Source: Galeopterus variegatus (lineage: Eukaryota). From it: 35,124 nucleotides of DNA. The stretch is taken from contig NW_007731670.1 of assembly GCF_000696425.1 (NCBI RefSeq), forward strand, positions 67,549 through 102,672, written 5' to 3'. Position numbers and translations under genes: made by a program. Within the stretch, counting starts at the first letter, position 1. Every line of letters begins with the position of its first letter. Positions 2,580-35,124 of the stretch are shown in pieces. The notes beneath the pieces were generated by a model. The model saw only the letters and a list, made by a program, of their open reading frames with translations, was not told where the DNA came from and did no database searches.

Positions 2580-2849
2580 ATGGAGAAACACCATGGGCAT
2601 GTGTCTGTCCATTCGGACATCCTCTCCTTGGAAAACCAGTGCCTGGCCATGCTTCCTGACCCGAAGACCATGGACAAACTCGATGGGCATATGTCTGTCC
2701 ATTCGGACATCCTGTCCTTGGAGAACCGGTGCCTGGCCATGCTTCCTGACTTGAAGTCCATGGAAAAACCATGTGGACATGTGCCTTCCCACCCAGATGT
2801 CCTCTCCTTGGAGAACCGGTGCCTGGCCACCCTCCCCAGTCTAAAGAGC
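2580..2849 (+). repeat. TEP1: Three tandem ~90-bp coding repeats (the TEP1 N-terminal 30-aa repeats) inside exon 1
   Basis: Units MEKHHGHVSVHSDILSLENQCLAMLPDPKT / MDKLDGHMSVHSDILSLENRCLAMLPDLKS / MEKPCGHVPSHPDVLSLENRCLATLPSLKS. The DNA repeat also creates the overlapping off-frame and antisense ORFs at 2428..2851. Confidence 0.85.
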
Positions 2850-3056
2850 ACTGTGTCTTCCAGCTCCTTGCTCCAGTGTCTCCAGATATCTCACATGATG
2901 CAAGATGATTTGTGCAGCCTGAACACCAGCACTTGCTTGCTCTCTAAGCCTTCAATTTGGAGGGCTCAGTGTCTATCTAAGGAACTAGATCTTCTGACCT
3001 GCCCCATGGCCTTGAAATCCATCTCTGCCACAGAGAATGTTCAGGAAGCAACTCTG
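2580..3056 (+). CDS. TEP1: TEP1 first coding exon (start ATG at 2580; exon probably begins near the ctctctctcctgctag acceptor at 2556, with 5'UTR sequence upstream)
   Basis: Encodes MEKHHGHVSVHSDILSLENQCLAML...ATENVQEATL with three ~30-aa TEP1-type N-terminal repeats. It is in frame with ORF 2406..3188 (M59 to L217). The donor is CTG|gtaata at 3057. Confidence 0.85.
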
Positions 3057-3544
3057 GTAATAGCTTCAGGCACTCATCTTGACTCCAGCCATGTCTGTTG
3101 TATGCTCTTATCACTAGCTTTCAGTGCCTCAGTTTCCATCTGTGCTGCTCTATGTCTGGGTGTCTTTTTTCCTCAGAGCTTTTTCTGAGGTGCCCTTTAC
3201 CCCAGAGCTGTCTTCATCAGCATCATTATTCTTATTGCATATCTAGTTCAGAGATTCTGGACAACAGGTCAAAAACAGGCCCTGTCCTTAGAAAGCCTTC
3301 ACTCAGGAGTAGAGCCAGCATGATATTGCTACGGCAAAGTCAGTTAGGTGCTTTTGAGATCAGGCATGAGACACATCTACTATACCAAGACCCACTTCCC
3401 TATATGTGCATGTGCAAACACATGTCCACCTGTGTACATCTATAGAAGCACATTTAGTACATAGGTTGGAGTAGGTAGACAAACACGCATTGCTTCTGTA
3501 ATGACTTGGGATTTGAGCTGAGTAAACAGGCTAATCTGAGCCCA

Positions 3545-3700
3545 ATACTGTTTCTGCCAATTACAGACTATCCAACCTTGGGCAAGACTCTTAACCTTTT
3601 GGAGCTTTAATTTCCTCACCTTTAAAATGAGTCAGTGAAAATCTACCTCACAGGGTCATTGTCAGGATTACAACTACTGCCATCTTACATTGATTTAGGG
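3545..3700 (+). mobile_element. MIR-like ancient SINE fragment
   Basis: Core-like sequence ttgggcaagactcttaacc...tttcctcacctttaaaatga...acctcacagggtcattgtcaggatta. It resembles the MIR core (cttaacctct...tttcctcatctgtaaaatgg...acctcatagggttgttgtgaggatta). Confidence 0.55.
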
Positions 3701-4171
3701 CTTTGCAATTTGTGATGAGTCATACATATGTTATTCCATTTCATTTTCCAACAACCTTACCAGGTAAATGGTAGTGAATGAGGAAGCTGATGTTCAGAGA
3801 GATTAGCCAGGCCAAGGTTGCTAGGGGATAGATATGGGACTTGGCTCTTTCTCTTCTAACTCCCAAAACATCTTAATAGCATCCTAGAAGGTGTGTGAAG
3901 GGCTCCAGTCTCTCAGGCTCTGACACCGGTAAGGAGATGAAAGCAGGGGGAAGACCAGGAAGCACCCAGGACCAAGGCTCAGAAGGTTGAGCAGGAAAGG
4001 TGGTGTGTGTGACAGTAAGAGAGCTCTAAGTCAGAGACAGGACAGATTAGCACTGGGCTGTGAAGGGCAGGAGTTTACTGCTAGATAGAGATATGGGGCC
4101 ACCTTCAGATTTGTCTTATGTTTGAGGGACCATGGGTACATGCTGTGATTCATAACTTCCAGTATCTCCAG

Positions 4172-4354
4172 GGCTGTTGGTCGTACTCAGAAGAGAAAAA
4201 GCCAGAAGAGAAGGAAGGAACAGAAGCCCAAATGCCTCTTTATAGTTTAAGCTTGGGAGAGGAGCAGGAGGTGGAGGAGCTGATCCTGAAGCTCACATCT
4301 GGAGACTCCGAATCTTGTCCTGAGCCCACTGACCAGGCCCTTCAGGAAAAGAAG
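4172..4354 (+). CDS. TEP1: TEP1 coding exon 2
   Basis: Acceptor tatctccag|GGC. Encodes GCWSYSEEKKPEEKEGTEAQMPLYSLSLGEE...DQALQEKK. Donor AAG|gtgaaa. Phase 0 to 0. Anchored on ORF 4118..4384. Confidence 0.85.
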
Positions 4355-4639
4355 GTGAAAGTTTCAGAGTTAGGGAGAGGTTGATGGTGGTGGAGGGAAG
4401 GGGAGGGATGGGGGATCTGGACCAGGTTCTCTCCCTGGATGGAAGGGGAAGGAGGAGACATGACCCAGCTCTTAATTTTTCACTTCAATCCCCATTTCTA
4501 ACCTCTCAGTTGGACAAATATCCTTCCAAATCTGGAGCCTATTCTGTCTTTCCTTGACTTTGTTAGTTGGTTCACATGGATGCTTAAGCTGGTCCCTGTT
4601 ATCTGTCTCTCTCTTTTTCCCCTCTTTCCCTTTTTTCAG

Positions 4640-4774
4640 ATGGTTCTAATGAGCTTGCTGTGCTCTACTGTGGCCTCAGATGTAAATATGGAAGATGTGA
4701 GTGACCCCATCCGGTCTTCCATCCTGGCAGCCTGTAGTGAACTTGCACCCTTGGAGCCTGAGTTTATACTCAAG
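4640..4774 (+). CDS. TEP1: TEP1 coding exon 3
   Basis: Acceptor cccttttttcag|ATG. Encodes MVLMSLLCSTVASDVNMEDVSDPIRSSILAACSELAPLEPEFILK. Donor AAG|gtattg. Anchored on ORF 4580..4843. Confidence 0.85.
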
Positions 4775-6712
4775 GTATTGTGGAGTGAAGGAGGGGATGG
4801 GAGTGGAAAGCTGGGAGATAGAGAACATGGTTATGTTGTATGAGGGGGGTGGTGACTAACCTCATGGTGGGGTGGGAGGTTCACTTAGGAAGGATCTCTG
4901 GGCAAGTCTGAGGCCTAGCCCCTGGGCTTCTGTGAACAATGGGGAAAGATGAGATTGGGAAGGAATGTACTAGTGTTGGCATGTTTATTAAGTACACTGT
5001 GCTAGGCCTTGAGGGTCCTACTAACAGATATAATGAAACTTGCATCTGGCTCTTAAAGAGTTTATAGTGCTATTAGGGAAGCAAAACACTGTTTCCCAAA
5101 CATCCCAAATGCAACTGGAGTACTACTAGATGGTGAACATTTCAGAAGAAAACAGGAGAGGGAATGTTTTCTATGAGGCTTCAGAAAATGTTTTCTGAGG
5201 CTTTGGAAGATGGCAGGTTTAATCAAAGATTTGAGCCCTGGCTAAGTTTTTGATAGACATTGATGTGGAAAGTCTTCCAAAGAGGGAAAGGGCCTGGTTG
5301 ACCTTGAAGGCAGTTGGTAGACTTAGAGGACATACTGGCAATGTAGATAAATGCTAGATTATGGAGGATTTACAATGTTAAGCCAGGAGGTTGGGCTTTC
5401 TGTTATTTATTTATCAAAACGTAATTGATTGTACATATCTGTGGGATATTGCGTTGAATACAATACCTGTGTGCAATATGTGGTGTTCAAATCAGGATAA
5501 TTAGTATATTCAACATTACATAATGTAATCATTTTTTTGTGGCCCTTTACCAATTCCCCTACCCCTCTCTCCTTTCCCACCTCTGGTAATCTTGGTTCCA
5601 TGTTCTCCTTTTGAAAGTTCAACATATTATTGTGATTGTTGTATCTTTCTTTCTTCTTTTTTATTTATTTGTTTATTTATTTTTTTTAGCTCCCACTTAT
5701 GAGTGAGGACATGCGGTGCCTGGATTATTTCACTTAACATTATTTTCTCTAAGTTCATCCATGTTGCTGCAAATACCAGAATTTTATTCTTTTTTTATGA
5801 CAGAGTAGTATTCCATTAAGTATATCCAGTCATCTATCAACAGACATATAGGCCAGTTCTATCTCTTGGCTATTGTAAATAGACCTGCAATAAACATGGG
5901 AGTACAGATATCTCTTTGACATGATGATTTCCATTGCTTTGGGTATATACCCGGCAGTGGGATTGTGGGATCATATGACAGTTCTACCTGTAGTTGTCTG
6001 AGGAGACTTCATACTGTTTTCCATCATGGCTGCACTAATTTACAGTCCCACCAACAGTGTACATGGGTTCCTCTTTTTCCTCATCCTCACTAGCATTTAT
6101 TAATCTCTGTCTTTTTGACAATAGCCAGTCTAACTGAGATGAGATGATATCTCAGTGTGGTTTTGATTTGCATTTCCCTGATATTCAGTGATGTTGAGCA
6201 TTTTTTCATGTGTCTGTTGGCCATTTGTATATCTTCCTTTGAGAAATGCCTGTTAGGCTCCTTTGCCCATTTTTTAATCTGGTTACTTTTTTTTTTACTA
6301 TGAAGTTGTTTGAGTTTCTTATATATTCTGGATGTTAATCCCTTGTCGGATGTATAGCTTTTGCAACTATTTTCTCCCATTCTGTAGGTTGTCCTTTCGC
6401 TCTTTTAATTGTTCCTTTTGCTGTACAAAAGCTTTTTAATTGGACATAATCCCATTTGTTTTATTTTTTCTTTTATTGACCTGTGCTTATGGGGTCTTAT
6501 TCATAAAGTCTTTGCCAAGTCCTACTTCCTGAAGTGTTTCCCCTTTGTTTTCTTTTAGGAGTTTTTTAGTTTCAGGTATTATATTTAAGTCTTTAATCCA
6601 TTTTGAGTTGGTTTTGGTATATGGCAAGAAGTATGGGTCTAGTTTTATTCTTCTACATATGATGTCCAGTTTTCACAGCACCATTTATTAGAGAGGCAGT
6701 CTTTTCTCCAAG

Positions 6713-6718
<6 letters not shown>

Positions 6719-6743
<25 letters not shown>

Positions 6744-6753
6744 GGTGCCTTTT
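6719..6753 (+). repeat. T33 homopolymer inside the antisense L1 body
   Basis: Homopolymer run read directly from the sequence. Confidence 0.8.
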
Positions 6754-9700
6754 GGTCTGTCTTGAAGATCAGTTGGCTATAAGTATGTGTGTTAATTTCT
6801 GGGTTCTCTATTCTGTTCCATTGGTCTGAGTGTCTGTTTTTACATCAGTAGCATGCTGTTTTAGTTACGTAGCTTTGTAGTTAATTTGAAGTCAGGCAGT
6901 GTAATGCCTCTGGCTTTATTTATTTATTTATTTTTTGCTTAGGATTACTTTGTATATTTGGGGTCTTTTGTTCTTGCATATAAGTGTTAGGATTGTTTTT
7001 TCTGTTTCTGTGAAGAATGTCATTGGTATTTTGACAGGCATTGCATTGAATCTGTAGATCACTTTTGGTAGTATGGATGTTTTCATAATGTTAATTCTTC
7101 TAATCCAAGAGCATGGGATGTCTTTCCATCCTTTTGTGTCCTCTTTAATTTCTTTCAGCAAAGATTTGTTATTCATGTTGTAGAGATGAATACCTCCTTG
7201 GTTTGAATTTACCTCCTTGGTTGAATTTATTACTAGGTATTTTATTTTTTTGTTGACTATTATAAATGATCTGGCTTTCTTGACTTCTTTTTCTGCTAGT
7301 TTGTTATTGAAGTATAAAAATGCTACTGATTTTTGTGTGTTGATTTTGTATCCTGAAACTTTACTGAAATTGTTTATCAGCTCTAAGAGTTTTTTGGTTG
7401 AGTCTTTCTATATGTAGGATCATGTCATCTGCAAACAGGGACAGTTTGACTTCATCTTTTCCAATCTGGCAGTCCATTATTTCTTTCTCTTGCCTGATTG
7501 CTCTGGCTAGTATTTCCAATACTTGGTGAGAGTGGGCATCCTTGTCTTATTCCCATTTTTAAGGGAAAAGCTTTCATCTTTTCCCCATTCAGGATGATAT
7601 TGGTAGTGGGTTTGTCATTTATGGCTTTTATTGTGTATGTTAAATAAGAGTGGTGAGAGTGGGCATCCTTGTCTTATTCCCATTTTTAAGGGAAAAGCTT
7701 CCATCTTTTCCCCATTCAGGATGATATTGGTAGTGGGTTTGTCATTTATGGCTTTTATTGTGTTGAGATACTTTCCTTCTATACCTAATTTGCTAACGGT
7801 CTTTATTGTGAAGGTATGTTGAGTTTTGTCAAATGCTTTTGCTGCATCTATTAAGATAGTCATATGGTTTTCATCCTTGATTTTGTTGATGTGGTGTATC
7901 ACATTTATTGACTTGCATATATTGAACCATCCTTGCATCCCTGGGATGAATCTCACTTGATTGTGGTGTATAATTTTTTTGATGTGTTGCTGTATTCTGT
8001 TTGCTAATATTTGGTTGAGGATTTTTGCATCTATTTGTATCAAAGATACTGGCCTGTAGTTTTCTTTTTTTGTTATATCTCTGACTGATTTTGGTATCAC
8101 TGTGATGCTGGCTTCATAAAATGAGTTTTGGAGAATGGGTTCTGTTTCAATTTTTTGAAGTAGTTTGAAGAGAATTGTTATTAATTCCTCTTTAGATGTT
8201 TGGTAGAATTCAGTGGTAAAGCTATCCAGTCCTGGGCTTTTCTTTGCTGCAAGACTGCTGATTACTACTTCATTCTCGTTGCTTGTTATTGGTCTGTTCA
8301 GGTTTTCTGTTTCTTCTTGGTTCAGTCTTGGTAGTTTGTATGTGTCCAGAAATTTATCCATTTCCTTCAGGTTTTCAAATTTGTTGGTGTATAGTTGTTT
8401 ATAAGTCTCTAATGATTGTTCATATTTCTGTAGTATCAATTGTAATGTCTCCTCTTTCATTTCTGATTTTTGTTATTTTGGTCTCTCTTCTTTCTTTAGT
8501 TAGCCTAGCTATTGGCTTGTCTATTTTGTTTATCCTCTCAAAAAAAAACAACTTTTTGTTTCATTGATCCTTTGTATCATATTTTGGGTCTCTATTTCAC
8601 TTAATTCTGTTATGATCTTAATTATTTCTGTCTACTAATTTTGGGATTGGATTGTTGTTTTTCTAGTTCTTTGAGGTTTAGTGTTAGGTAGTTCATATGA
8701 AATCTTTCTTTTGATATGAGTGTTTATTGCAATAAACTTCTCTCTTAGTACTGTTTTGCTGTATCCCATAGATTTTGGTATGATTTGTCTTTATTTTTGT
8801 TAGTTTCAAGAAATTTTTTATTTCCTATTTAATTTCTTCTTGGACCCATACGTTGTTAAAGAACATGTTGTTTAATTTCTATGTGTTTTTATAGTTTTCA
8901 GAGTTTTGTTTTTATTGATTATTACTTTTAATCTGTTGTCTTCTGAAAAGATACTTTAAATGATTTCAATTTCTAAAAAATTTGTTGAGACTTCTTGTGA
9001 CTTAAAATGTGGTCTGTCCTAGAGAATGTTTCATGTGCTGATGAGAAGAATGTATATTCTGTAGTTGTCAGATGAAATGTTCTGTAGGTATCTGCCAAGT
9101 CCAATTTGCCTGAAGTGTAGTTTAAATCCTGTGTTTCTCTGTTGATTTGTTGCCTAAATTACCTGTCCAATTCTGAGAAAGGGGTGTTCAGGTCCCCAAC
9201 TATTATCATATTAGGGTCCATCTCTTTCTTTAGTTCTAATAGTGTTTGCTTTATATATCTGGGTACTCCAGTATTGGGTGCATATATAAACATATAAGTG
9301 TTATGTCTTCACACCGGATAGATCCCTTTTATCATTATATAGTAGCCTTCTTTGTCTCTTTTTATGGTTTTTGGTTTAAGGTCTATTTTATCTGATATAA
9401 GAATAGCTACTCCTGCTCATTTTGGTTTCCATTTCCATGGTATATCTTTTTTTATTCCTTCATTCTTAGTCTGTGTGTGTCTTTACAGGTGAGATGAGTC
9501 TCTTGTTGATAGCATGTAGTTGGGTCTAGCTTTTTAATCCTATCAGTCTTTTTTTGAGTGGGGAGTTTAATCATTTACATTTAGGGTTGTAATTGAAAGG
9601 TACTGTCTTCTGACATTTAACTGGTTTTTGTATGGTTGACTTAAATATCTTGTTCCTTTCTTCCCCTTTTATTCTTTGTCTCCAGTGTTTTTGGATTTTT

Positions 9701-10487
9701 GAGGTGTTATGGTATAGTTTCTTTCTCTTTCCCATTTGCGTATCTGCTCTACCAGTGGTGTTTGTTCATACTCATGTGTTCATGGTGGTGATTATTATGT
9801 TTTAGGTTCTAGGTGCAGGACTCCCTCAAGATTTTTCTTATCTTGCTGGTTGTGTGGTTGTGAAGTCCTGCAGCTTTTGTTTGTCTGAGAAATATACTAT
9901 TTTCCCTTCATTTCTGAAGCATATCTTTGCTGGGTATAGTATTCTTGGCTGGCAGTTTTTTTCTTTTAGTACTTTGAATCCAGTTCTCTTCTGGCTGTAG
10001 GATTTCTGCTGAGAAGTCTCCCTCATAGGTGAATTGACATTTGTTTCTTGCTGATTTTAGGATTCTTTGTCTCTGACTTTTGAAAGTTTGATTATAATGT
10101 ATTTCAGAGAGGACTTTTTGGATTGAATCTATTTGGAGATCTTAGAGCCTCTTGGATGTGGAAGTCTGTATCTCTACTACCAATATCTGGGAAGTTTTCT
10201 GCTATCATTTTATTGAAGGTGTTTTCAATGTCTTTTCCTTTCTCTTCCCCCTCTGGAACACTCACGATTCAGATGTTTGTGTGTTTAACGTTGTCTGCTA
10301 GCTCTCTTTGATTTTCTTCACTTTTTTTTTTCTTTATTTATTTTTGTCCACTTGGATTATTTAAAAAAGACTGTCTTCAGAATCAGAAGTTATTTCTTCC
10401 ACTTTCTCTAGCTTGCTGCTTATGCTCTCAGTTGTAGTTTTTATTTTGTTGAATAAGTCTTTCAGTTCCAGGAGCTTTGCTACATTC

Positions 10488-10727
10488 TTTTTTTTTTTTT
10501 TTTTGTCTTTTGTCTTTTTTCCGTGTCCGGCAATGGATCGCAACCCTCAGTGTTGCCCCCGTACCGGACCGGGGACCGGCAACGGTATCGCAACCCTCGG
10601 CGTTGCTCCCGCGCCTCGCTCAGCCAGTGAGCGGGAGCCGGTCTGTATGTGGGATCCGAACCCTCGGGCGGGAGCGCCGCCGTGCTTCCCAAGCGGCGCA
10701 CTATCCAGTGCGCCACCGGGCCGGCCC
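10488..10727 (-). mobile_element. Young CpG-rich ~230-bp SINE (family A) nested inside the L1 ORF1 region, with poly-A tail and target-site duplication
   Basis: Reverse complement of the head GGGCCGGCCCGGTGGCGCACTGGATAGTGCGCCGCTTGGGAAGCACGGCGG...GAGGGTTGCGAT...CCGGACACGG(A)n. It is flanked by a direct repeat: ctacattc before the T16 run and tacattctttt after. It interrupts the L1 ORF1 coiled-coil coding sequence. Confidence 0.8.
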
Positions 10728-11159
10728 TACATTCTTTTTTATGGTATTTATCTTTGTTTAAATTTCCTCCTTCATGTCCTGGATTGTTTTTCTCATTTCA
10801 TTTTGTTGTCTATTTGAGTCTTCTTGTATGTCACTGAGTTTCTTCAAGATTGTTACTCAGAATTCCTTTTTAGAGGATTTACTGTTGTTTGGGGTCTGCT
10901 TTTTTGAGAATTGTGCTATTCCTCTGGTAGTGTCATATTTTCTTGTTTTTCGTATTTCTAGTATCACTACAATAATTTCTAGTCATATAGGGGAGTGTTT
11001 ACTTCTTCTATTACTCTGGGGTGGCTTTTGAGGAGAGAGACTCCCTCCTTTAGATTTGTTATATGTTGCCTATTGGATGGGGTTTTAGTTTTGGTTCTGT
11101 AGAATCAGTAGTTTTGGTAGTTCTGGGTACAGTCGATTGTTCTGAGTAGACTCAGTAAT

Positions 11160-11625
11160 TCAGTGGGGTGCTGGCAGCTACATCTGTGGCTGTGCCTATG
11201 TGGGTGGGTGGGGGCTGTGTGAGCAGTTGGGGTGGCTGGGGCCACATGGGCAGCTGGGCAGGTGGGGGCTGTGTGGGTGGCTGGGTTAGGTGGGCCCATT
11301 TGTGCAGTTGGCTATGGTGGCTGGGACTGTGTGGGCAGCTGGGGCTGTGCATGCAGCTGGATGGCAGGGCCCATGGGGGTGGGTGGGGCCACATGGTTGG
11401 AGGGGTGTTGGGGCTGCATGGGCAGCGGGACAGCTGGGCCCAGGTGGGGTCGTGGGGCTACACTGGTGGCCGGGTGCTTGGCGTCACATTGGCAGCTGAA
11501 GCCACACGGGCAACTGGAAGGCTGGAGCCATGCCGGCCACTGGCACAGTGTGGGCAGTTGGGCTTGGCCGCATGGGCAATGTGGGCCATTTGGTGAGGTG
11601 CACTGTGCAGGAAGAACTCCTGTGT
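11160..11625 (+). repeat. GC-rich, G-plus-T-biased degenerate tandem array (period roughly 30-40 bp) abutting the L1 5' end
   Basis: Reiterated gggcagctggg / ggctgtgtggg / ggccacatggg motifs. They generate long artefactual ORFs on both strands (11168..11596, 11232..11741 and 11152..11394 minus). Confidence 0.7.
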
Positions 11626-11673
11626 GGGAGAAGGGCCATGGCTCTGGGACTAGACAGTGGAACAGGCAACCAA

Positions 11674-11967
11674 GACAGTGGTGGGGGAGAGCTGGGGCAG
11701 GAGCAGGAGGAGGGTTACCACTGGAATGTGCTCATGGCTGAGCAGGTTCTTTGCTTTGCAAAGGAGAATTCCTCCTGGTTAATCCTGGTGTGGGAGACAT
11801 GTGCCTCTTTTTCCTGCCAAGACAGTGGTGGGGGAGAGCTGGGGCAGGAGCAGGAGGAGGGTTACCACTGGAATGTGCTCATGGCTGAGCAGGTTCTTTC
11901 CTTTGCAAAGGAGAATTCCTCCTGGTTAATCCTGGTGTGGGAGACATGTGCCTCTTTTTCCTCTACA
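11674..11967 (+). repeat. Tandem duplication, 2 x 147 bp, in intron 3
   Basis: gacagtggtgggggagagctggggcaggagcaggaggagggttaccactggaatgtgctcatggctgagcaggttcttt...ggagacatgtgcctctttttcct appears twice at about 98% identity. ORF 11530..12153 translates both copies. Confidence 0.85.
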
Positions 11968-12268
11968 CCACCCTGCTTGGTTTTTGTGCTCCACATGGGC
12001 TTTATCAGGCTCCCACTGCCCTCCCATGCACTGCTACCGATGTTCTCCCCTGTACTTAGCTGTCTGTTCCTTGCTTTGGTCCCTTTCTGTGTGAGGGATC
12101 ATGCATTGGACACATCTAGTCCGCCATCTTGGGGCTTTATATTTTGTAGATGATATGGAGCTCTCAGGAAAGGTTTTATGCAGGCTGATTCATTAAGCGA
12201 GTTAGTTTAGGGCATGAAGCTATGTGAGAGGTGGCTGAGATACCAACCCTCTCCACCCTGTGCCCTAG

Positions 12269-12430
12269 GCATCTTTGTACACCAGGCAACAGCTTAACCT
12301 GCGAGATGTGGCCAATAAACTCTTGGCCATTGCGGCCTTCTTACCAGCCTGCCGCCCCCACCTGCGACGATATTTCTGTGCCATTGTCCAGCTGCCTTCT
12401 GATTGGATCCAGGTAGCCAGGTTCTACCAG
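12269..12430 (+). CDS. TEP1: TEP1 coding exon 4 (start of the TROVE-region exons)
   Basis: Acceptor ctgtgccctag|GCA. Encodes ASLYTRQQLNLRDVANKLLAIAAFLPACRPHLRRYFCAIVQLPSDWIQVARFYQ in 54 codons. Donor CAG|gtatgg. Confidence 0.85.
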
Positions 12431-12852
12431 GTATGGCACTCGCTTCCCTGACCTTTGGCCCTCACATGGTTTCCCTCGCTTGTGCTCACTGCATCCCTGG
12501 AGAAAATTCACAGAGTTTGGCCTGCCCTTAGTTTCCCTCAACCTTGGTACCCAGACGGGGCAGCTTCTCCCTGTACTATGCTGGGTTGCCCAACAGGGAG
12601 AATACGATTGAGAATGGGTGCACTGAAGTGTGAGAAAAATTGATCTTATTTTGGATCTCATGTTTATAATGAAGAAAATGAGAAGCAGAGAAGTCTGCTG
12701 ACTTGCCCAGCACCATGGAAGTTGTCATTCTAGAGCTGGAGCTGGGAACTTGCTCCCTATTCTGTTCCCTCCTCTGACCCCATGAATTGTCTTGATTTGT
12801 TGTGAGGGTTTGTTTGGGTCTTGCTTTTGATGGTCTGCTCTCCCTCTGACAG

Positions 12853-13014
12853 AGCCTGGCTGAAAGAGACGAGAAGAAGCTGGTGCCCCTGCCTGCCTGC
12901 CTCCGTGCTGCTATGACTGACAAATTTGCTCAGTTTGATGAGTACCAGCTGGCTAAGTACAATCCTCGGAAGCACCGGGCCAAGAGCCGTCCCCGCCGGG
13001 CCCCCCGCCTTCCA
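12853..13014 (+). CDS. TEP1: TEP1 coding exon 5 (3' boundary less certain)
   Basis: Acceptor ccctctgacag|AGC. Encodes SLAERDEKKLVPLPACLRAAMTDKFAQFDEYQLAKYNPRKHRAKSRPRRAPRLP. The best donor is CCA|gtcagt at 13015. The frame stays open downstream, so a longer exon is not excluded. Confidence 0.65.
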
Positions 13015-13299
13015 GTCAGTCTGTGCCTCAGCTCTTGTCATTCACAACTGAGGCCCCTTTTATCTCGGAAGTGGGGGACAAGGGAATATGCCGACCCTAA
13101 GGGGTCTTACACCCAGAACAGAAGGAGTCAGAGAAATCCAGAGGAGCTGGGTGGAGCTCAGGGGCAGAGACAGCAGAGCAGGCCTCTTTTCCAGCTGGCT
13201 TTCTTTTTGGTAGAGAAGGACCTTCGGGGCTATCAGAATGGGTCTCTGTAGGGACTACCTCCATTTCTCTTTCTGAAACTTCTTTTCCTTCCTCTACAG

Positions 13300-13371
13300 A
13301 AGACGAAGCATCCATTTTCTATGAAATATTTTCCAAGATGCTTTATTTCTCTTAAAGACACACAGATGAAG
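13300..13371 (+). CDS. TEP1: TEP1 coding exon 6 (small, 24 codons)
   Basis: Acceptor ttccttcctctacag|AAG. Encodes KTKHPFSMKYFPRCFISLKDTQMK. Donor AAG|gtgagt. Phase 0 to 0. Anchored on ORF 13321..13536. Confidence 0.65.
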
Positions 13372-13734
13372 GTGAGTCCCTGGAGTTGTGTATGTGCATG
13401 TAGTCTTTTAGTCTTTTCTGGACTAATATTTATTAACAATCCCATTAGGCTTAAAAATACTAATAGTGGGTGTGGTAGGTACATACCAATTTTCTGCCTG
13501 GGGATTCTCAGCTGTGATTATGGGGACAGGTTCTGAAAGCACCGGGAAAAGCTTTTTTTTCTTTTTTTTCCCCCATTTCACTCTCCTTGGTATTTTATAT
13601 TTCACTGACAAGTGACATGTCTGGTTGGATCAGTGAGTTAAAAACATTGTGAGATATCTACCTTCCATAGAAAGTTTTAAAAACAAACCAAGTAAAATCT
13701 TTTTTACATTTATGACAAATAAGGCATGTACTTA

Positions 13735-13865
13735 GCAGCTGGGAGCACAGAATCTGGATTCAGATCACCTGGGTTTGAGTCTCAGCTCCACCCCTTCCTG
13801 GCTATGAGACCATAGTCAAAGGTGTTAACCTCTCTTGCCTCACTTTTTCTCATATACAAAATGGA
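13735..13865 (+). mobile_element. MIR-like fragment, immediately 5' of the 13870 t-SINE
   Basis: gattcagatcacctgggtttgagtctcagctc...ggtgttaacctctcttgcctcactttttctcatatacaaaatggagata matches the MIR 5' and core regions. Confidence 0.5.
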
Positions 13866-13869
13866 GATA

Positions 13870-13948
13870 GGGTTGTCTGGTTAGCTTACTTGGTTAGAGT
13901 GTGGTGCTGATAACACCAAGGTCAAGGATTCGGATCCCCATGCTGGCC
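13870..13948 (+). mobile_element. tRNA-Ile-like t-SINE, tail-less copy
   Basis: GGTTGTCTGGTTAGCTTACTTGGTTAGAGTGTGGTGCTGATAACACCAAGGTCAAGGATTCGGATCCCCATGCTGGCCA. It has a cloverleaf-like layout with a GAT anticodon-loop sequence (CTGATAAC). Confidence 0.75.
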
Positions 13949-14648
13949 AAAAAGCAAAATGGGTATAGTAGCAGAACCTATGTTGTTGGGTTGTTGTGAA
14001 GATTATGTCAGTTACTGTATTTAAAGTATTTCTAACAATATCTGGCTCTAAATAAGTGTTAGCTATCACTACCATCATCATTATTAAAACAGATTATTAG
14101 GAAAACATATATTAGTATTACAAAAAGACACATTCTCAGTTGGTCAACTGGTCTTTTCTCTTCATCCTATTAATACAAGTACATCCTAAATTTAGCTCTT
14201 CTACCATAGAAGATTTTGAAAGCCACCTTCTTTCAGTGTTTTAACTCCTTACAACTCGCATTGGGCTGATGCCTCTATTTACCTGTTAGAGTCTTAGTGA
14301 TTTAAATAAGACCTGCTTTCCCTTTCCTGGCCTTTAAGAACAAGAATGTTCTCTGTTCATTCTCTCCCCATTTTGTTTTTCACTAGCCAATCACCCCATG
14401 ATAACCACTGATAATTCAATCTTGTGTGAATGAAACATAGTAACCGTGAAGAGCTGCTATCTTATGCTCGTCCTGGGAGCTCTTGTTGCTGGAGATTTTT
14501 ACCCTCTATTCCTAGTCTTTGCCCAATTCTATTTTGGAGAAAGAAAGTACCTCATGTGTATAAGACGGTCTTAGGCTCTGTTTTCTAAAGAAAACATCGA
14601 CGGTCATAGATGAAATGATTTCTGTGGGACTTGGGGATGTCTCCACAG

Positions 14649-14773
14649 TTTGAGGCATCCTACAATGACGTGCCAAAGAAAAAGCATCAGTCAATGTTCA
14701 CTCTGAAGAAATTGGTACAGCGACTGCATATCCGGGAGCCTGCTCAGCACGTCCAAGCACTCCTGGGCTATAA
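14649..14773 (+). CDS. TEP1: TEP1 coding exon 7
   Basis: Acceptor atgtctccacag|TTT. Encodes FEASYNDVPKKKHQSMFTLKKLVQRLHIREPAQHVQALLGY plus AA. Donor AA|gtgaga, ending in phase 2. Confidence 0.8.
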
Positions 14774-14991
14774 GTGAGAAGCTATACCCTGAGCATACAT
14801 TTCCATCTAGGTAACCCTGTGACTTTCCAATATCCATGGCCCAAATCCTGGTAGTTCTCATTCCCAGCAATATGAGTTTGGGCAGACATGGCCAACAAAC
14901 ATAACAGACTGTCTTTATCCAACTCACCATTCCTTTTCCAAGTTATTTTCTGCTAGCTTTGGAATGATAGGCTCTTTCTCCTCTGTCCCAG

Positions 14992-15149
14992 ATACCCCTC
15001 CAACCTACAGCTCTTTTCTCGAAGTCGCCTCCCTGGGCCATGGGATCCTAGCAAAGCTGGGAAGCGGATGAAGCTCTCTAGGCCAGAGACCTGGGAGCGG
15101 GAGCTGAGCCTGCGGGGAAACAAAGCTGCCGTCTGGGAAGAACTCATCG
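14992..15149 (+). CDS. TEP1: TEP1 coding exon 8
   Basis: Acceptor ctcctctgtcccag|A. Encodes (K)YPSNLQLFSRSRLPGPWDPSKAGKRMKLSRPETWERELSLRGNKAAVWEELI plus G. Donor G|gtagag, ending in phase 1. Confidence 0.8.
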
Positions 15150-16289
15150 GTAGAGTGACCTTGATCATCACACTCCTTTCCTCTCTTCCCCATTCAAGCC
15201 TCTACATTTTAAACCCTGACTAGAAAATTTCCATGGCGTGATGCAATTGTTGTCTTGCCTAGTAGTTGCATGGACAGTGGTGTCCACTTTGAGTAGAGCT
15301 GGCATCATAGACAGATCATTATTCCAGATGTCGTTAGGTCATACACAAGTCTTTATCAACCTGTGTTAAAAGTGGTACCTTCTCTCTGATTACTTTTGTA
15401 TCGATATCATTCCAAACAAGGTAGGACTGGCACATGGCATGCTGGAATCTCTACGGAAACTGATATTTAGTATATGGAAGTTTTGCCCACACTGATAAAG
15501 AGAAAAAAATTCAAACTGGGAAAGACCAAGTTACCTTCAGTCTTCTCTTTTTCTGTTTTTTTGTTAGTTTATTTTTAACTATAGAAGGCTCTTTCTATTT
15601 TCACATATATGTACCTTATTTCTATTATGTTTCCTTTTGCTTCCTCTTTCATTGTTGAAAATTTAAAGTCAATTTATTTCTGTTAAAAGACATCTAACTT
15701 TAGACCTTTTGACTTTTGTAGACCTCACATTTTGGAGCTTCAGAAGCCCAAATTGTCTTTTACTTTATTTCTCTGTGCATTGCCCATTATAGATTGTACT
15801 CAGGGCAGCCTGAGTTGCTCAGCTGCTCATCACTCTTCTCACTTTGTTGTTGTCACTGGTGATGTATATATCAGAATTGTCTGGGAATTAAAACACATGC
15901 ACACCCTGCTTGACAACCTCTTCCCCAACAGTTGAAACAACTTGGGGTGGAGCGAAATGAAGGGGCCTGGATGGCAGCCAGCATATGTAGATAATTTTAT
16001 ATGCACCATCTCCACTTCCTCCCTGTGGTCAAGAACCACTATCCCTGAAAACTTGAACTGTCATTTATCTTGGTTGAGGCAAATGCCCATAGTCTCATCC
16101 AATGGTCTCTTGAGATTTATGATCATATACTGCAAAAACAATTTTTGGAATATCCAGAATACATGTGTCTGTATTTTTAAAAATTGTGTACGTGTCTTCA
16201 TATAAAGAAGGGGTCTTCAAAAAGTTCATGGAAGGAATCATATTATCTTTGCATTCTATTTTTCCGTGAACTTTTTGAAGTACCCTCAT

Positions 16290-17863: not shown

Positions 17864-17973
17864 ACAATGAGAAGCTACCCTTTATGGCAATGCTTCGGAA
17901 CCTGTGCAACCTGCTGCGGGTTGGAATCAGCACCCACCACCACGAGCTTGTTCTCCAGAGACTCCAGCATGCG
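17864..17973 (+). CDS. TEP1: TEP1 coding exon 9
   Basis: Acceptor ccccaccttccgcag|AC. Encodes DNEKLPFMAMLRNLCNLLRVGISTHHHELVLQRLQHA. Donor GCG|gtacgt. Anchored on ORF 17779..17994. Confidence 0.88.
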
Positions 17974-18505: not shown

Positions 18506-18596
18506 AAGTCGGTGATCCACAGTCGGCAGTTCCCATTCAGATTCCTTAATGCACATGATTCCATCAATTACCTTGAGGTTCAACTCAGAAATAAAG
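18506..18596 (+). CDS. TEP1: TEP1 coding exon 10
   Basis: Acceptor tctcttgctttccag|AAG. Encodes KSVIHSRQFPFRFLNAHDSINYLEVQLRNK plus G. Donor G|gtatta, ending in phase 1. Confidence 0.85.
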
Positions 18597-18818: not shown

Positions 18819-18990
18819 CATTGCCCTTTCCTTCCAATACAAAACTGATGAGGTCGATAATGATCAGAAACTCAAGAAATGGCAGGAGTTGTGCCCTCAA
18901 CAGCAGTCGTCGTGAGCTTCGGGCAGCAATGATGGTACCTGTGTTGTATGAGCAGCTCAAGCGGGAGAAGCTGAAAATACACAAGGCCAG
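18819..18990 (+). CDS. TEP1: TEP1 coding exon 11
   Basis: Acceptor ccacacag|CA. Encodes ALPFPSNTKLMRSIMIRNSRNGRSCALNSSRRELRAAMMVPVLYEQLKREKLKIHKA plus AG. Donor AG|gtgtgt. Anchored on ORF 18821..19054. Confidence 0.85.
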
Positions 18991-19141: not shown

Positions 19142-19238
19142 TTTTTTTTTTTTTGGCGGCTGGCCAGCACAGGGATCGAACCCTGGACATTGATGTTATC
19201 AGCACCACACTTAACCAACTGTGCTAACTGGCCAGCCC
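19142..19238 (-). mobile_element. tRNA-Ile-like t-SINE with a short poly-A tail
   Basis: The minus strand reads GGAGGGCTGGCCAGTTAGCACAGTTGGTTAAGTGTGGTGCTGATAACATCAATGTCCAGGGTTCGATCCCTGTGCTGGCCAGCCGCC(A)13. Confidence 0.75.
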
Positions 19239-21498: not shown

Positions 21499-21667
21499 AC
21501 AATGGCAGTATGATGGTGAGATGCTGGACCAGTATCGACAGGCCCTGGAGACAGCTGTGAACCTCTCTGTGAAGCACAGCCTGCCCCCACTGCCGGGCCG
21601 CACCCTCTTGGCCTATCTGACAGATACAAATGCAGACAAGCTCTGTCCCAAGAGCAACTCACAAGGG
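21499..21667 (+). CDS. TEP1: TEP1 coding exon 12
   Basis: Acceptor ctgtgtcttttttgcatgcag|A. Encodes (R)QWQYDGEMLDQYRQALETAVNLSVKHSLPPLPGRTLLAYLTDTNADKLCPKSNSQG. Donor GGG|gtaaaa, followed directly by an A17 run. Confidence 0.88.
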
Positions 21668-21668
21668 G

Positions 21669-21686: not shown

Positions 21687-21908
21687 GCATCCTCTGAGGG
21701 GTTGGTGAGATGCTAGGGATCCAGAGAGTTATCCTGTTCCCAGACCTGGTTCTTCCAGGCAAGCACTCAGACTGAAACAAATGATATGAATTTGCTTCCA
21801 AATATCAGTATTTGGCGCTCAATCCTGTTTATGGATTATAATAATAACATTTCACATTGGGCTGGTACTTAATACTCTAAATTTCCATCACCAAAATATG
21901 TCTCACTT

Positions 21909-22137
21909 TGGGCCGGCCCGGTGGCACACTGCTACAGTGCACCGCTTGGGAAGCGCGGCAGCGCTCCCTCCGAGGGTTTGGATCCCACATACAGACCAGT
22001 TCCCGCTCACTGGCTGAGCGAGGCGCGGGAGCAACACCGAGGGTTGCGATCCCGTTGCTGGTCCCGGTCCGGTCCGGGCACGACACTGAGGGTTGCGATC
22101 CGTTGCCGGACACAAAAAAAGACAAAAAGGAAAAAAA
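21909..22137 (+). mobile_element. Family-A SINE copy 1 (within a tandemly duplicated 406-bp block)
   Basis: GGGCCGGCCCGGTGGCACACTGCTACAGTGCACCGCTTGGGAAGCGCGGCAGCGCTCCC...GAGGGTTGCGATCCGTTGCCGGACAC followed by an A-rich tail. It is tRNA-like at the 5' end and retains many CpGs. Confidence 0.8.
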
Positions 22138-22315
22138 TCCTGTTCCCAGACCTGGTTCTTCCAGGCAAGCACTCAGACTGAAACAAATGATATGAATTTG
22201 CTTCCAAATATCAGTATTTGGCGCTCAATCCTGTTTATGGATTATAATAATAACATTTCACATTGGGCTGGTACTTAATACTCTAAATTTCCATCACCAA
22301 AATATGTCTCACTTT

Positions 22316-31772: not shown

Positions 31773-31835
31773 GTGAGATGAGTCACTGGGTGGTTTCTTC
31801 TCTGAGATACGGGACTCCTGGGTGTGCGGATGGGG

Positions 31836-31849
31836 GGGGGGGGGACTCA
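31836..31849 (+). repeat. G14 homopolymer in intron 32
   Basis: ggatggggggggggggggactc. Confidence 0.75.
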
Positions 31850-32274
31850 TCAGGAGGTGTAATGGAAAAAATAGTCAAGTTTCCATTCCAAGATGAAAAT
31901 GCCAAGAGTATAAGCAAATCATTCTCAGGAGTCCTTTTGCTTACTCTCATAGATCAGAGGTCCTTAAACTTTATTTAGTGGGCATGAAATTATTTGAATT
32001 GCTGATCCTTGGGTCCCCAGATAGTGGTTCTCTAGGTCTGGAGTGGGGCCTAAAGCTTGGTACTTTTAACAAGTGTTCTTGATATGGGGCCAGAGGGCCA
32101 CACTTTGAGACTTGCTATTTTATCAGCACCACACTCTAACCAACTAAAACTTACTATTTTTGACACACCATGTGATTCCATTTTTGCTGGGGTTAATGGG
32201 GTCCAGGCTGACTCCCTAGTGATCTAGAGGATGCAGAAGGGCTGAGCCCTTCTCAATCTGTCTCTCTTTTGTAG

Positions 32275-32515
32275 CTTCTTCAGTCCCTGAACAGGAACAA
32301 AAGCTCCCTGAGGCTGACGTTGCTGTATTTTGCACCTTCCTTAAGCAGCAGGCTCCAATCCTCAGCCAGTACCCCCTACTCCTGCCCCAGCAGGCAGCCA
32401 ACCAGCCTCTAGACTCACCTGTTTGCCACCAGGCCCCCCTGCTCTCCCAGCAATGGCACCTCCGGCGCATGCTGCGATGGCTTAATAAGCCCCAGACCAT
32501 GAGGGATCAGCAAAC
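32275..32515 (+). CDS. TEP1: TEP1 coding exon 33
   Basis: Acceptor ctgtctctcttttgtag|CT. Encodes (A)SSVPEQEQKLPEADVAVFCTFLKQQAPILSQYPLLLPQQAANQPLDSPVCHQAPLLSQQWHLRRMLRWLNKPQTMRDQQ plus AC. Donor AC|gtaaga. Confidence 0.85.
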
Positions 32516-32685
32516 GTAAGAAGACCCTTTACTCTAGACATTAATAAGCCCACCAGAAAGCAAGCTGCAGCCCTTTCTGAAACTGGAGAATAAAGGACAG
32601 ATCAGAAGCACTGTGGAGAGTGGGATTCAGGAGCAGAAATGCAGAAACCGATTTCATGTTTGCTGTCTTCCCCTCATTTTTCTAG

Positions 32686-32809
32686 CTCCAGCCTGACTCT
32701 GGCAGTTTCCTCATCCCCCACCGCTGTGGCCCTGTCCCCCAATGGGCAAAGAGCAGCTGTGGGAACTGCCAGTGGGACAGTTTACCTGTTGGACCTGAGA
32801 ACCTGGCAG
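32686..32809 (+). CDS. TEP1: TEP1 coding exon 34 (first WD40-type repeat sequence)
   Basis: Acceptor cttcccctcatttttctag|C. Encodes (T)SSLTLAVSSSPTAVALSPNGQRAAVGTASGTVYLLDLRTWQ. Donor CAG|gtatga. Confidence 0.85.
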
Positions 32810-33659
32810 GTATGATACTTAAGATGGGGCAGAATTTACCTTCAGAAACCCTCACAGACTGCCCCAAAGCCCTAGACCAGCCAAGACCCATCCTAGACCC
32901 ACCCACTATCACCCTGATTGATTCTTCTCACATCAGATCAAAGGGATGGGTCAAAAAATCAATCACACAGTAGCTCTTTGCTGCACATCTTTATTCAAGG
33001 CATGTACTAAGCATTGCAAGGAACACCGGGCTTAAGACTTTGTTTCTGCCCACCAAGTGGTCAATTTTGTTTGGAAGTAAGACAGAAGGTAAAAAAAGGA
33101 CCTAAAACATAACCGTGTGACATAATTAAGAGTTCAGTGAGTTGTGTAGTTATGGGAGAGAGAAGGGCAGGCATTCTGCATGTAGTGAGGAGCCTGAGCA
33201 AAGACACAGGGGGAGAATGTTTCCTGTAAATTGCTGGGAACGATTGCAGCAGAGGGTGCTTATGGGAGGGTGATAGTAGATTAGGCTGGAGAGATGAGTC
33301 GCATAGCCATGGCCTCTCTCTCCCCTCTTCCCACCCATATTATCCTCACCCCCATGTATATGCATGCATGTAATCCCTCTCCCTCAGACCAATCAAAATC
33401 TCCCATGACTGGGGAGTAGGTATGAGGTTTGGAGAGAAAGAGAAGATGTGGCCCTACTTGGATCATGAGGCCCCATCTGAACCTGTGCCTGGGCTGAGAA
33501 TGTAGACAGACAGGGGCAAGCCCTTCTTCTTCTTCTTTTTTTTTTTATTAGTTTTTTTAAGCCCTTCTTGCCTTGGCCTCCTCTCTGGTTGGGGCCCGGG
33601 GTAGTGGGACATGGAGGGTAAAGGGTGTTGCCTGAGCTGTGCTTCACCCGCTCTCACAG

Positions 33660-33784
33660 GAGGAGAAGTCAGTGGTGAGTGGCTGTGATGGAATCTCCTC
33701 CTGCTCATTCCTCTCTGACAGTGCCCTCTTTCTCACTGCCTTCAGCGGGCTCCTGGAGCTCTGGGACCTGCAGCATGGTTGTCG
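33660..33784 (+). CDS. TEP1: TEP1 coding exon 35 (WD40 repeat region)
   Basis: Acceptor cttcacccgctctcacag|GAG. Encodes EEKSVVSGCDGISSCSFLSDSALFLTAFSGLLELWDLQHGC plus CG. Donor CG|gtacgg. Anchored on ORF 33639..33848. Confidence 0.88.
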
Positions 33785-33911
33785 GTACGGGGTGCCTCCC
33801 ACATATCTTGGAGGGGGGCTTTCTCCATTTATCAGAAGCCTCAGGTGAAGGGAACAAGGGGGGAGCCTATGGCCAAGGAGTCCCAGGGGCCTGACTCTCT
33901 TCCCGGGATAG

Positions 33912-34011
33912 GGTGTTCCAGACCAAGGCCCACCAGTACCAAGTCACTGGCAGCTGCCTGAGCCCAGACCGCCGGCTGCTGGCTACCGTGTGCCTGGGGG
34001 GATGCCTAAAG
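33912..34011 (+). CDS. TEP1: TEP1 coding exon 36 (WD40 repeat region)
   Basis: Acceptor ctcttcccgggatag|G. Encodes (R)VFQTKAHQYQVTGSCLSPDRRLLATVCLGGCLK. Donor AAG|gtaatg. Confidence 0.85.
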
Positions 34012-34229
34012 GTAATGACTAGGGGGCTGCCGTGGTCTAAGTGACCTAGACTGTGAGTCAGTCATGATGAGGTGTTCTCTTAGCATGGCAGAGACTGCTG
34101 ACTGCTTGGCCTGAGGAGGCCTTCCCTGCTGAGTGTGGGGACTGGGCAACGTGGCTGCTGGAGCTCTGGGACTAAGAAGCTCAGGCATCTGTATTCAGCA
34201 CCCTGCCTCCTCTCCTCTCTGTCCTCCAG

Positions 34230-34385
34230 CTGTGGGACACAGTCCATGGGCAGCTGGCCTTCCAGCACACCTGTACCAAGCCCCTGAACTGCACTGCCTT
34301 CCATCCAGAGGGGCAGGTAATAGCCACAGGTAGCTGGTCTGGCAGGTTCAGCTTCTTCCATGTGGACGGGCTCAAAGTCACCAAG
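34230..34385 (+). CDS. TEP1: TEP1 coding exon 37 (WD40 repeat region)
   Basis: Acceptor cctctcctctctgtcctccag|CTG. Encodes LWDTVHGQLAFQHTCTKPLNCTAFHPEGQVIATGSWSGRFSFFHVDGLKVTK in 52 codons. Donor AAG|gtaaga. Confidence 0.88.
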
Positions 34386-34529
34386 GTAAGAAGGTCCTGT
34401 GAGGCTCTGGGAAAGGAAGCATAGGAGGACAGGAGTGGGAGATGGGGAATGATGGACATCAGCATTCCGTGTCACTTTGGGCTTGTGCTGAGAGGGGGCC
34501 TGACATTTCCATTTCTACCTCCTGCATAG

Positions 34530-34742
34530 GAACTGGGGGCCCCAGGAGCCTCTGTCCGTACCTTGGCCTTCAATGTGCCTGGGCGGGTTGTAGCTGTTGG
34601 CCGGTTGGACGGCACGATGGAGCTGTGGGCCTGGCAAGAGGGGGCACGGCTGGCTGCCTTCCCTGCCCACTGTGGCTTTGTTGCTGCTGCGCTTTTCCTG
34701 CGGGCTGGGTGCCAGTTACTGACGGCTGGAGAGGATGGCAAG
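34530..34742 (+). CDS. TEP1: TEP1 coding exon 38 (WD40 repeat region)
   Basis: Acceptor atttctacctcctgcatag|GAA. Encodes ELGAPGASVRTLAFNVPGRVVAVGRLDGTMELWAWQEGARLAAFPAHCGFVAAALFLRAGCQLLTAGEDGK. Donor AAG|gtcagg. Anchored on ORF 34563..34775. Confidence 0.88.
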
Positions 34743-35010
34743 GTCAGGTTACAGAGAGCTGGCAGGGAGTCCTGAGGACGGAGGAGCAAAGGCAGGGAGT
34801 GTTTGGGTGAGGGTGGGCCTTTGTTGAGGAGACTGTGGAGGAGCTTGGATGGCGGGAGCTACAGGGAGAGGGGTGTGGGTGTGTGTGTGGGCAGCCCTCA
34901 TGAGAAGAGCATCTGGAAGGAGCATCTTAATGGGGGTGTCTGTAACTCTGGTGGTGGGGAGGACTGTGTGGTGGAAGTGGGTATCTTTAAGCCCTTTTCT
35001 CGGCCTCCAG

Positions 35011-35124
35011 GTCCAGGTGTGGTCAGGGTCTCTGGGTCGGCCCCGTGGGTGCCTGGGTTCCCTCTCTCTCTCTCCTGCCCTTTCCGTCGCTCTCAGCCCA
35101 GATGGTGACCAGGTGGCTGTTGGG
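35011..35124 (+). CDS. TEP1: TEP1 coding exon 39 (5' part only; truncated by the window end)
   Basis: Acceptor cccttttctcggcctccag|GTC. Encodes VQVWSGSLGRPRGCLGSLSLSPALSVALSPDGDQVAVG. The frame is open to the last base of the window. Confidence 0.85.

Follow-up and report, generated by a model that had tools for sequence, protein, structure and literature searches.

The window analysed here, the whole 35,124-nt stretch of DNA, almost certainly carries the 5' part of a placental-mammal TEP1 gene on the + strand, as judged from its sequence. TEP1, the telomerase-associated protein 1 or telomerase protein component 1, is a well-known protein of telomerase and of the vault particle, and the gene in the window is an ordinary, previously described one rather than a novel defence system of bacteria. 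Its human locus presumably adjoins KLHL33 and PARP2. The coding sequence opens with a start codon at position 2580 and runs out of the window at approximately human residue 1945. The human protein has about 2,627 residues. This length agrees with the mass of 290 kDa given for human TEP1 (PMC7916137). The C-terminal ~680 residues, the last coding quarter, lie beyond the window, and the intactness of the gene is visible for the 5' three-quarters only. The first-pass annotation had placed the 5' two-thirds of TEP1 here; the 5' position stands, but the fraction is nearer three-quarters.

The exon-intron structure was obtained by a junction search, which located 39 coding exons between 2580 and 35124 on the + strand, with GT-AG boundaries in 38 of 38 introns. 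When spliced, the exons amount to 5,754 nt, or 1,918 codons free of stops, the same counts as those annotated earlier. Acceptor positions -20 to -4 are 75% pyrimidine, compared with 52% window-wide. To find the exons, a provisional human TEP1 sequence was used, purely as a guide; independent validation of the model came from its splice sites, its uninterrupted reading frame, Pfam and PDB matches and named database fragments. Near-equivalent alternative junctions are present for both intron 24 and intron 25. For the first of these, 29008/29101 is almost equal to the junction adopted. For the second, 29256/29390 has the top score by alignment alone, but 29252/29386 combines a GTAAGT donor (CGG/GTAAGT) with a CAG acceptor and was chosen by splice consensus; the two pairs give equal length. 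Use of these splice sites in the cell is a prediction, as are the position of the transcription start and any first exon that is non-coding; a further in-frame ATG lies at 2406.

A Pfam search of the spliced product gave the domain order TEP1_N repeats, TROVE, DUF5920 (vWA-like), DUF4062, NACHT and the start of the WD40 region. Exon 1 (2580-3056, donor CTG/GTAATA) begins with MEKHHGH... at 2580 and encodes three 30-aa TEP1_N repeats, seen both as three 90-nt DNA copies at 2580-2849 and as three Pfam stretches (179.4 bits, cut-off 25), in agreement with the N-terminal repeats of about 30 aa noted before. Human TEP1 has four such repeats (PMC7916137), whereas a tarsier model (P0025) also has three. 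The TROVE domain (PF05731) is full-length, with 701.8 bits over profile positions 1-442 of 442 at residues 201-649. It starts at 4295 in exon 2 (4172-4354; AG acceptor, GT donor), continues through exon 3 (4640-4774), exon 4 (12269-12430), which holds AIAAFLPACRPHLRRYFCAIVQLPSDW and, at 12326-12406, AIAAFLPACRPH...SDW, and exons 5 to 11 (12853-13014, 13300-13371, 14649-14773, 14992-15149, 17864-17973, 18506-18596 and 18819-18990), and ends at 21598 in exon 12 (21499-21667). Exon 6 is the least conserved of all exons; its boundaries match those of the tarsier model. DUF5920 (PF19334; 395.9 bits, profile 1-202 of 203, residues 660-861) starts at 21629, also in exon 12, extends through exons 13 to 16 (22796-22954, 23132-23209, 24017-24147 and 24578-24637) and ends in exon 17 (25524-25682).

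In the second half of the product, the NACHT domain (PF05729, 91.8 bits) retains both nucleotide-binding motifs. Walker A, GQSGQGKT, is encoded in exon 23 (28510-28704), which contains LVTGQSGQGKTAFL at 28663-28704 and the K1147 codon at 28690-28692; after exon 24 (28828-29006), Walker B, LIIDGAD, follows in exon 25 (29099-29252), and the match ends in exon 26 (29386-29565). Exons 27 to 33 (30011-30103, 30357-30489, 30621-30771, 31004-31137, 31294-31382, 31658-31772 and 32275-32515) lead to the onset of the WD40 region in exon 34 (32686-32809), with GTVYLLDLRTWQ at 32774-32809. LLELWDLQHGC lies in exon 35 (33660-33784) at 33750-33782, and MELWAW in exon 38 (34530-34742) at 34617-34634. The WD40 profile scores 76.4 bits, and WD40 or beta-propeller matches extend from residue ~1642 to the window end, with further repeats beyond it; about 21 WD40 repeats are given for TEP1 in the literature. 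Six peptides quoted by the first-pass annotation, those placed here at 2580, 12326, 28663, 32774, 33750 and 34617, occur exactly on the + strand in the raw frames. KLWDT and GEDGKVQVW are missing from the raw frames and arise only by splicing: exon 36 (33912-34011) ends in ...GGCLK and is joined to exon 37 (34230-34385), and exon 38 ends in GEDGK and is joined to exon 39 (35011-35124), which is cut by the window end with its frame still open. The exons must therefore have been spliced correctly in that annotation. TROVE, the NACHT P-loop and the WD40 onset, all named in it, were recovered by the Pfam search; DUF4062, sited between the vWA-like segment and NACHT in exons 17-22, was absent from its list.

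The DUF4062 match (PF13271, 52.9 bits) corresponds to a TIR-like domain that starts at 25681 in exon 17 and ends in exon 22. Residues 868-1086 align with PDB 11gz_A, 'Telomerase protein component 1', the human TIR-like domain, with 202 of 219 residues identical (92%, E 3.9e-136). Exon 18 (26391-26567) encodes R881 and the DLRWG loop, and the codon of R927 is split between exons 18 and 19 (26566, 26567 and 26818, with the first two bases in exon 18). R949 is encoded in exon 19 (26818-26938) and E981 in exon 20 (27488-27612; codon 27527-27529), and the domain continues through exon 21 (27875-27988) into exon 22 (28085-28202). R881, R927, R949 and E981 are the counterparts of human R908, R954, R976 and E1008, all of them conserved, as is the RWG loop. 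In 2026 preprints, human E1008 is described as catalytic, and R908, R954, R976 and the RWG loop as functional residues. By alignment, the catalytic residues of DUF4062 are conserved in this TEP1.

Human and rodent TEP1 are known to bind vault RNA and telomerase RNA, to associate with vaults and to have NADase activity. In TEP1, these two RNAs are bound by the TROVE RNA-binding module together with the vWA-like domain, and this may hold for the present protein as well. A TIR-like DUF4062 domain, a putative NADase with an intact catalytic glutamate, precedes the NACHT P-loop NTPase, and the whole could follow a STAND-type logic, in which WD40 repeats act as the sensor, NACHT as the oligomerisation switch and the TIR-like domain as the effector; this is an unproven preprint proposal.

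Database comparisons consistently pointed to TEP1. Across three database searches, nearly all named matches were TEP1, TROVE-domain or telomerase p80-like proteins, from Cervus, Carlito, Physeter, Pontoporia, Cavia and more distant vertebrates, and the few oddly named ones are gene models with the same TROVE/DUF4062 domains. The closest matches show 86-92% identity. The spliced product is collinear with Cervus TEP1 models, including a C-terminal fragment (E 1.6e-153). In the 5.8-billion-protein database the TEP1 matches are fragments or imperfect gene models, the longest of about 1,150 aa, and the end-to-end comparison is based on these fragments, one PDB chain and the provisional human guide sequence. 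Compared with this guide sequence, 82.8% of 1,912 aligned residues are identical, in collinear order from human residue 31 to 1945; a database fragment (P0001) reproduces stretch 1035-1474 of the guide sequence almost exactly. Human TEP1 has the same domain order and shares Walker A, Walker B and the four TIR-like domain residues with the window's TEP1. The earlier assignment of the spliced product to TEP1 thus holds: the alignment is collinear from the start to the window end, the domain combination is TEP1-specific, the best solved-structure match is TEP1, and neither a misalignment nor a better match to a different NACHT-WD40 protein was encountered.

An alternative reading would be a different DUF4062-NACHT-WD40 STAND protein, such as NWD1, NWD2 or a TEP1-like paralogue. 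This core is shared, and NWD1, NWD2 and NPHP3 are assigned by 2026 preprints to the domain family that also contains TEP1 (DUF4062/TeTIR-NACHT STAND); all three likewise carry a DUF4062-type domain directly before NACHT, followed by C-terminal repeats. They are, however, without the TROVE-vWA extension, attributed only to TEP1 and its orthologues (2026 preprint), and without TEP1_N repeats, whereas TROVE, the vWA-like DUF5920 and TEP1_N are all found here. With the 92% identity to the PDB TEP1 chain, and no match named NWD1 or NWD2 in the three database searches, such a paralogue is effectively refuted, and we regard it as extremely improbable. Other proteins share parts of the layout. Ro60 (TROVE2) has TROVE followed by a vWA-like domain, as in TEP1, but lacks the TIR-like, NACHT and WD40 regions and binds Y RNAs, not vault RNA (cited reviews). 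APAF1 combines an effector, an NTPase and WD40 propellers in a tripartite STAND layout, and its WD40 region matches (E 7e-20), but its effector is a CARD and not a TIR-like domain, its NTPase is NB-ARC and not NACHT, and TROVE is absent. Given TEP1, the copy might be an unprocessed non-functional duplicate or a unitary pseudogene instead of a working gene, a reading to which the partial view of the coding sequence and five near-perfect two-copy tandem duplications in the locus, one of them copying the exon 22 donor, lend something. It is nevertheless very unlikely: the 1,918 codons contain neither stop nor frameshift, all splice-site pairs are canonical, the catalytic and nucleotide-binding residues are intact in a TIR-like domain 92% identical to the human one, and the duplications are intronic except for 30 nt of exon 22, whose first donor is still usable.

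A prokaryotic or viral multi-gene defence cassette would have to be sought in the DUF4062-NACHT part of the sequence. Bacterial DUF4062-NACHT-TPR proteins cover more than 90% of the spliced 578-aa DUF4062-NACHT segment with 29-30% identity, and a PADLOC scan of this segment gave matches to Avs1b (25 bits) and mad8, both weak, and thus places it in none of the known defence families. Against a cassette, the homologous coding sequence is divided into 39 pieces with GT-AG introns between them, the best matches are mammalian, and the longest ORF in the window, of 281 aa, is a LINE reverse transcriptase; no uninterrupted prokaryotic effector or sensor ORF is present among the window's ORFs, none of which is long. 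The intron-exon structure refutes this explanation, and its chance is practically nil. The relation of TEP1 to defence proteins is real all the same, and the earlier statement that a defence expectation does not apply, correct in that this is a known mammalian gene, is too flat. Three 2026 preprints show that DUF4062 of TEP1 is a TIR-like NADase with homology to anti-phage effectors of bacteria, and in one of them, of the full-length human proteins assayed, TEP1 alone was active as an NADase. The bacterial DUF4062 NIR/TIR-like systems Swarozyc, Avs-NIR, Vulcan, Vesta and Evangelion have a homologous NADase domain with a conserved catalytic glutamate. They are single uninterrupted genes without TROVE/vWA, whereas the window's TEP1 is intron-rich and mammalian; it shares only the enzymatic domain with them and is a member of none. 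The homology of DUF4062-NACHT to bacterial NLR-like anti-phage proteins is likely the reason why a defence-oriented scan would pick TEP1. This defence-related homology is already published, and no novelty is added to it; the locus thus contributes only one more mammalian orthologue with conserved catalytic residues. As a clean negative of eukaryotic origin, the window should be dropped from searches for new prokaryotic defence systems.

Among the tandem duplications, which look like assembly artefacts, the one that affects coding sequence is 143 bp long and repeats the last 30 nt of exon 22 together with its donor (copy at 28316-28345). Were this duplication genuine, splicing from the second donor would cause a frameshift. 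There is a very small chance that the duplications are real, very recent events in this lineage and that TEP1 could yield an out-of-frame isoform ending shortly behind the TIR-like NADase domain; such an isoform would amount to a naturally occurring 'effector-only' protein, like those that the preprints found toxic when expressed alone.

The window as a whole also fits a eukaryotic context: long ORFs are absent, and a LINE reverse-transcriptase fragment occurs alongside SINE-like elements. The LINE fragment lies in intron 3 on the - strand, antisense to the gene (7615-8460; RVT_1, 89.7 bits). An Rfam scan of the whole window gave two tRNA-like matches and nothing else, with no intronic snoRNA or other RNA gene. 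One lies in intron 11 (19161-19233, - strand) and forms the tRNA-Ile-like head of a short SINE that carries a poly(A) tail; the other, also tRNA-Ile-like and followed by a C-rich and then an A-rich tail, lies upstream of the gene (516-592, - strand). The presence of the LINE and SINE repeats of which the introns had been said to be full is confirmed in qualitative terms only, by RVT_1 and by the tRNA-like heads with A-tails. These tRNA-Ile-like SINEs of ~75 nt call to mind the colugo t-SINE/CYN family, to which we would guess that they belong.

The window is not prokaryotic. Its GC content varies between 33% and 59% over 2-kb bins, and the longest open reading frame in a window-wide six-frame scan (281 aa, 7615-8460, minus strand) encodes part of a reverse transcriptase (Pfam RVT_1, 89.7 bits). 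The gene that it carries is almost certainly TEP1, encoding telomerase-associated protein 1, an already known gene in which nothing is new. Because no full-length mammalian TEP1 was found among the protein database matches, a human TEP1 sequence that is not a database result was used as a tblastn guide to the exons, as a lead only; a database fragment (P0001) agrees almost perfectly with its 1035-1474 stretch. At every one of the 38 gaps, all frame-keeping GT or GC donors and AG acceptors near the match ends were enumerated and the joined peptide was scored, and a GT-AG pair came out best in every gap (38/38). The spliced model (2580-35124, plus strand) joins 39 exons into 5,754 nt of stop-free coding sequence (1,918 codons), which takes up 17.7% of the span, and its frame is still open at the window end in exon 39 (35011-35124). 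Pyrimidines make up 75% of acceptor positions -20 to -4, against a window background of 52%. Intron 24 has two near-equal junction pairs (29006/29099 or 29008/29101), whereas for intron 25 the pair 29252/29386 was preferred over a near-equal alternative because of its GTAAGT donor and CAG acceptor; in both introns the length is the same either way. The first-pass annotation, read from the sequence without database searches, had proposed 39 exons in one 1,918-codon frame, and the junction search returned exactly these counts. Six of the eight peptides that it quoted occur exactly in plus-strand frames where it had placed them: MEKHHGH... (from 2580), AIAAFLPACRPHLRRYFCAIVQLPSDW (12326-12406), LVTGQSGQGKTAFL (28663-28704), GTVYLLDLRTWQ (32774-32809), LLELWDLQHGC (33750-33782) and MELWAW (34617-34634). 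KLWDT and GEDGKVQVW, the remaining two, are absent as contiguous DNA but form when exons 36/37 and 38/39 are joined, and are therefore correct as well.

Pfam profiles identified in the spliced product TEP1_N in three stretches (179.4 bits), TROVE over its whole profile (residues 201-649, 701.8 bits), the vWA-like DUF5920 over its whole profile (660-861, 395.9 bits), DUF4062 (873-957, 52.9 bits), NACHT (1135-1307, 91.8 bits) and a WD40/beta-propeller region from about residue 1642 to the end (WD40, 76.4 bits). The domain order is the same as that described for TEP1, namely 30-residue N-terminal repeats, TROVE, vWA, NACHT and WD repeats (PMC7916137). By far the top match among solved structures is the human TIR-like domain 11gz_A, "Telomerase protein component 1" (E 3.9e-136; residues 868-1086, 202/219 identical). 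When the N-terminal, central and C-terminal parts were queried separately against the protein database, nearly all names returned were TEP1, TROVE-domain or telomerase p80-like, from Cervus elaphus, Carlito syrichta, Physeter, Pontoporia and Cavia, then reptiles, sharks, fishes and invertebrates; the few oddly named matches are gene models in which these TROVE/DUF4062 domains are also present. The spliced product aligns collinearly with the Cervus models, imperfect as they are, and shares 82.8% identity with the human guide sequence across 1,912 aligned positions (residues 31-1945 of the human protein). Relative to the present exon model, the public TEP1 models P0024, P0140, P0003 and P0025 (Cervus, Pontoporia, Carlito) are broken up or wrongly spliced, keeping parts of introns or leaving out exons.

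The intron-exon structure rules out a prokaryotic cassette. The NACHT-WD40 paralogues NWD1 and NWD2 both lack the TROVE-vWA extension (2026 preprint) that is present here, and are therefore excluded as well. A non-functional copy of TEP1 is unlikely, although the 3' quarter of the gene lies outside the window: the 1,918 codons contain no defects, each of the 38 introns has canonical splice sites, and identity to the human TIR-like domain is 92%. The initial assignment to TEP1 thus withstood the comparison that it had itself proposed as a challenge, with a product collinear with TEP1, named matches that are nearly all TEP1, TROVE-domain or telomerase p80-like, and NACHT-WD40 paralogues excluded.

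At the N-terminus, three 30-residue repeats are encoded at 2580-2849, versus four in human TEP1 (PMC7916137). Three repeats are also present in the tarsier model P0025 and an unnamed fragment (P0035), and four in another database protein (P0033). Copy number thus varies among mammals, and the difference from human is ordinary variation, since the tarsier also has three. The Kozak context of the ATG at 2580 is good, with A at -3 and G at +4. An upstream in-frame ATG is found at 2406, 58 codons before the conserved start and with no intervening stop; the 2406-2579 extension displayed no TEP1 similarity. The AG at 2576-2577, just 5' of the start codon, could be the acceptor of a putative non-coding first exon.

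Of the domains, the first-pass annotation had listed the N-terminal repeats, TROVE, NACHT and WD40 correctly but overlooked DUF4062, which lies between the vWA-like domain and NACHT (exons 17-22, 25681-28202, plus strand). DUF4062, for which the names NIR and TeTIR have been introduced, is reported to be a TIR-like NADase; bacterial anti-phage systems, among them Swarozyc, Avs-NIR, Vulcan and Vesta, use it as the effector that depletes NAD+, and in human TEP1 it mediates E1008-dependent NAD(P)+ hydrolysis, including within reconstituted vaults (10.64898/2026.05.01.722283, 10.64898/2026.09.04.749371, 10.64898/2026.09.21.753143; 2026 preprints). In the 11gz alignment, where human residue n corresponds to n-27 of the spliced product, all residues named in these preprints are conserved: E1008 as E981 (codon 27527-27529, exon 20), R908 as R881 (exon 18), R954 as R927 (codon split by intron 18), R976 as R949 (exon 19) and the RWG loop (exon 18). 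Given this conservation, G. variegatus TEP1 is likely NADase-competent. In NACHT, the Walker A lysine (K1147) and the Walker B motif LIIDGAD are intact.

Bacterial DUF4062-NACHT-TPR proteins (P0016-P0022), one of them from a candidate division WOR-3 MAG, align with residues 868-1445 (578 aa; 25681-30771) at 29-30% identity and 92-98% coverage (E 1e-52 to 1e-59). This likeness is consistent with DUF4062 as a shared NADase effector (2026 preprints), and is probably the reason why such a window could surface in a defence-oriented scan; the PADLOC models of 2023 gave only weak matches, with Avs1b at 25 bits. Dismissing a defence expectation was right in practice, the gene being eukaryotic and known, but too flat biologically: TEP1 is an NLR-like STAND protein with a defence-type effector, as already published. 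The part of the gene in the window appears intact and encodes an RNA-binding TROVE-vWA module, a TIR-like NADase that looks catalytically competent, a NACHT switch and the start of the WD40 repeats. According to the literature, rather than the present sequence, TEP1 is located in the vault particle and its TROVE binds vault RNA (PMC7916137). As speculated in the 2026 preprints, the WD40 repeats would sense some signal, which would drive NACHT oligomerisation and so activate the NADase; this sensor-switch-effector model is an open proposal for TEP1.

Five tandem duplications, each of exactly two copies, 97-99% identical and free of indels, are located at 7524-7763 (127-bp unit), 11670-11962 (147 bp), 21731-22543 (406 bp), 24222-24428 (104 bp) and 28173-28457 (143 bp). 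So many near-perfect duplications within 35 kb suggest assembly artefacts, for instance from gap closing or from overlaps left unmerged, more strongly than genuine recent events. The 143-bp duplication copies the 3'-terminal 30 nt of exon 22 (28085-28202) and its GT donor at 28316-28345; if splicing used this second donor, the transcript would gain 143 nt and leave the frame just past the TIR-like domain. An interspersed element about 230 nt long and bearing a GACAAAA-type A-rich tail occurs in three copies (83-94% identity), at 10493-10720 and inverted at 21970-22137 and 22376-22549, two of them inside the 406-bp duplication. Two minus-strand tRNA-Ile(GAT)-like sequences of about 75 nt were detected by Rfam and ARAGORN, at 516-592 (45.5 bits, followed by a C-rich stretch and then an A-rich tail) and 19161-19233 (30.6 bits, with an A-rich tail next to it). 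Both look like the heads of short simple tRNA-derived SINEs and may resemble the colugo t-SINE/CYN family, which would fit a dermopteran source. The G-rich stretch 11160-11740, open in several plus-strand frames (ORFs 11168-11596 and 11232-11741) with degenerate W/G-rich translations, probably derives from an intron 3 minisatellite that has decayed.
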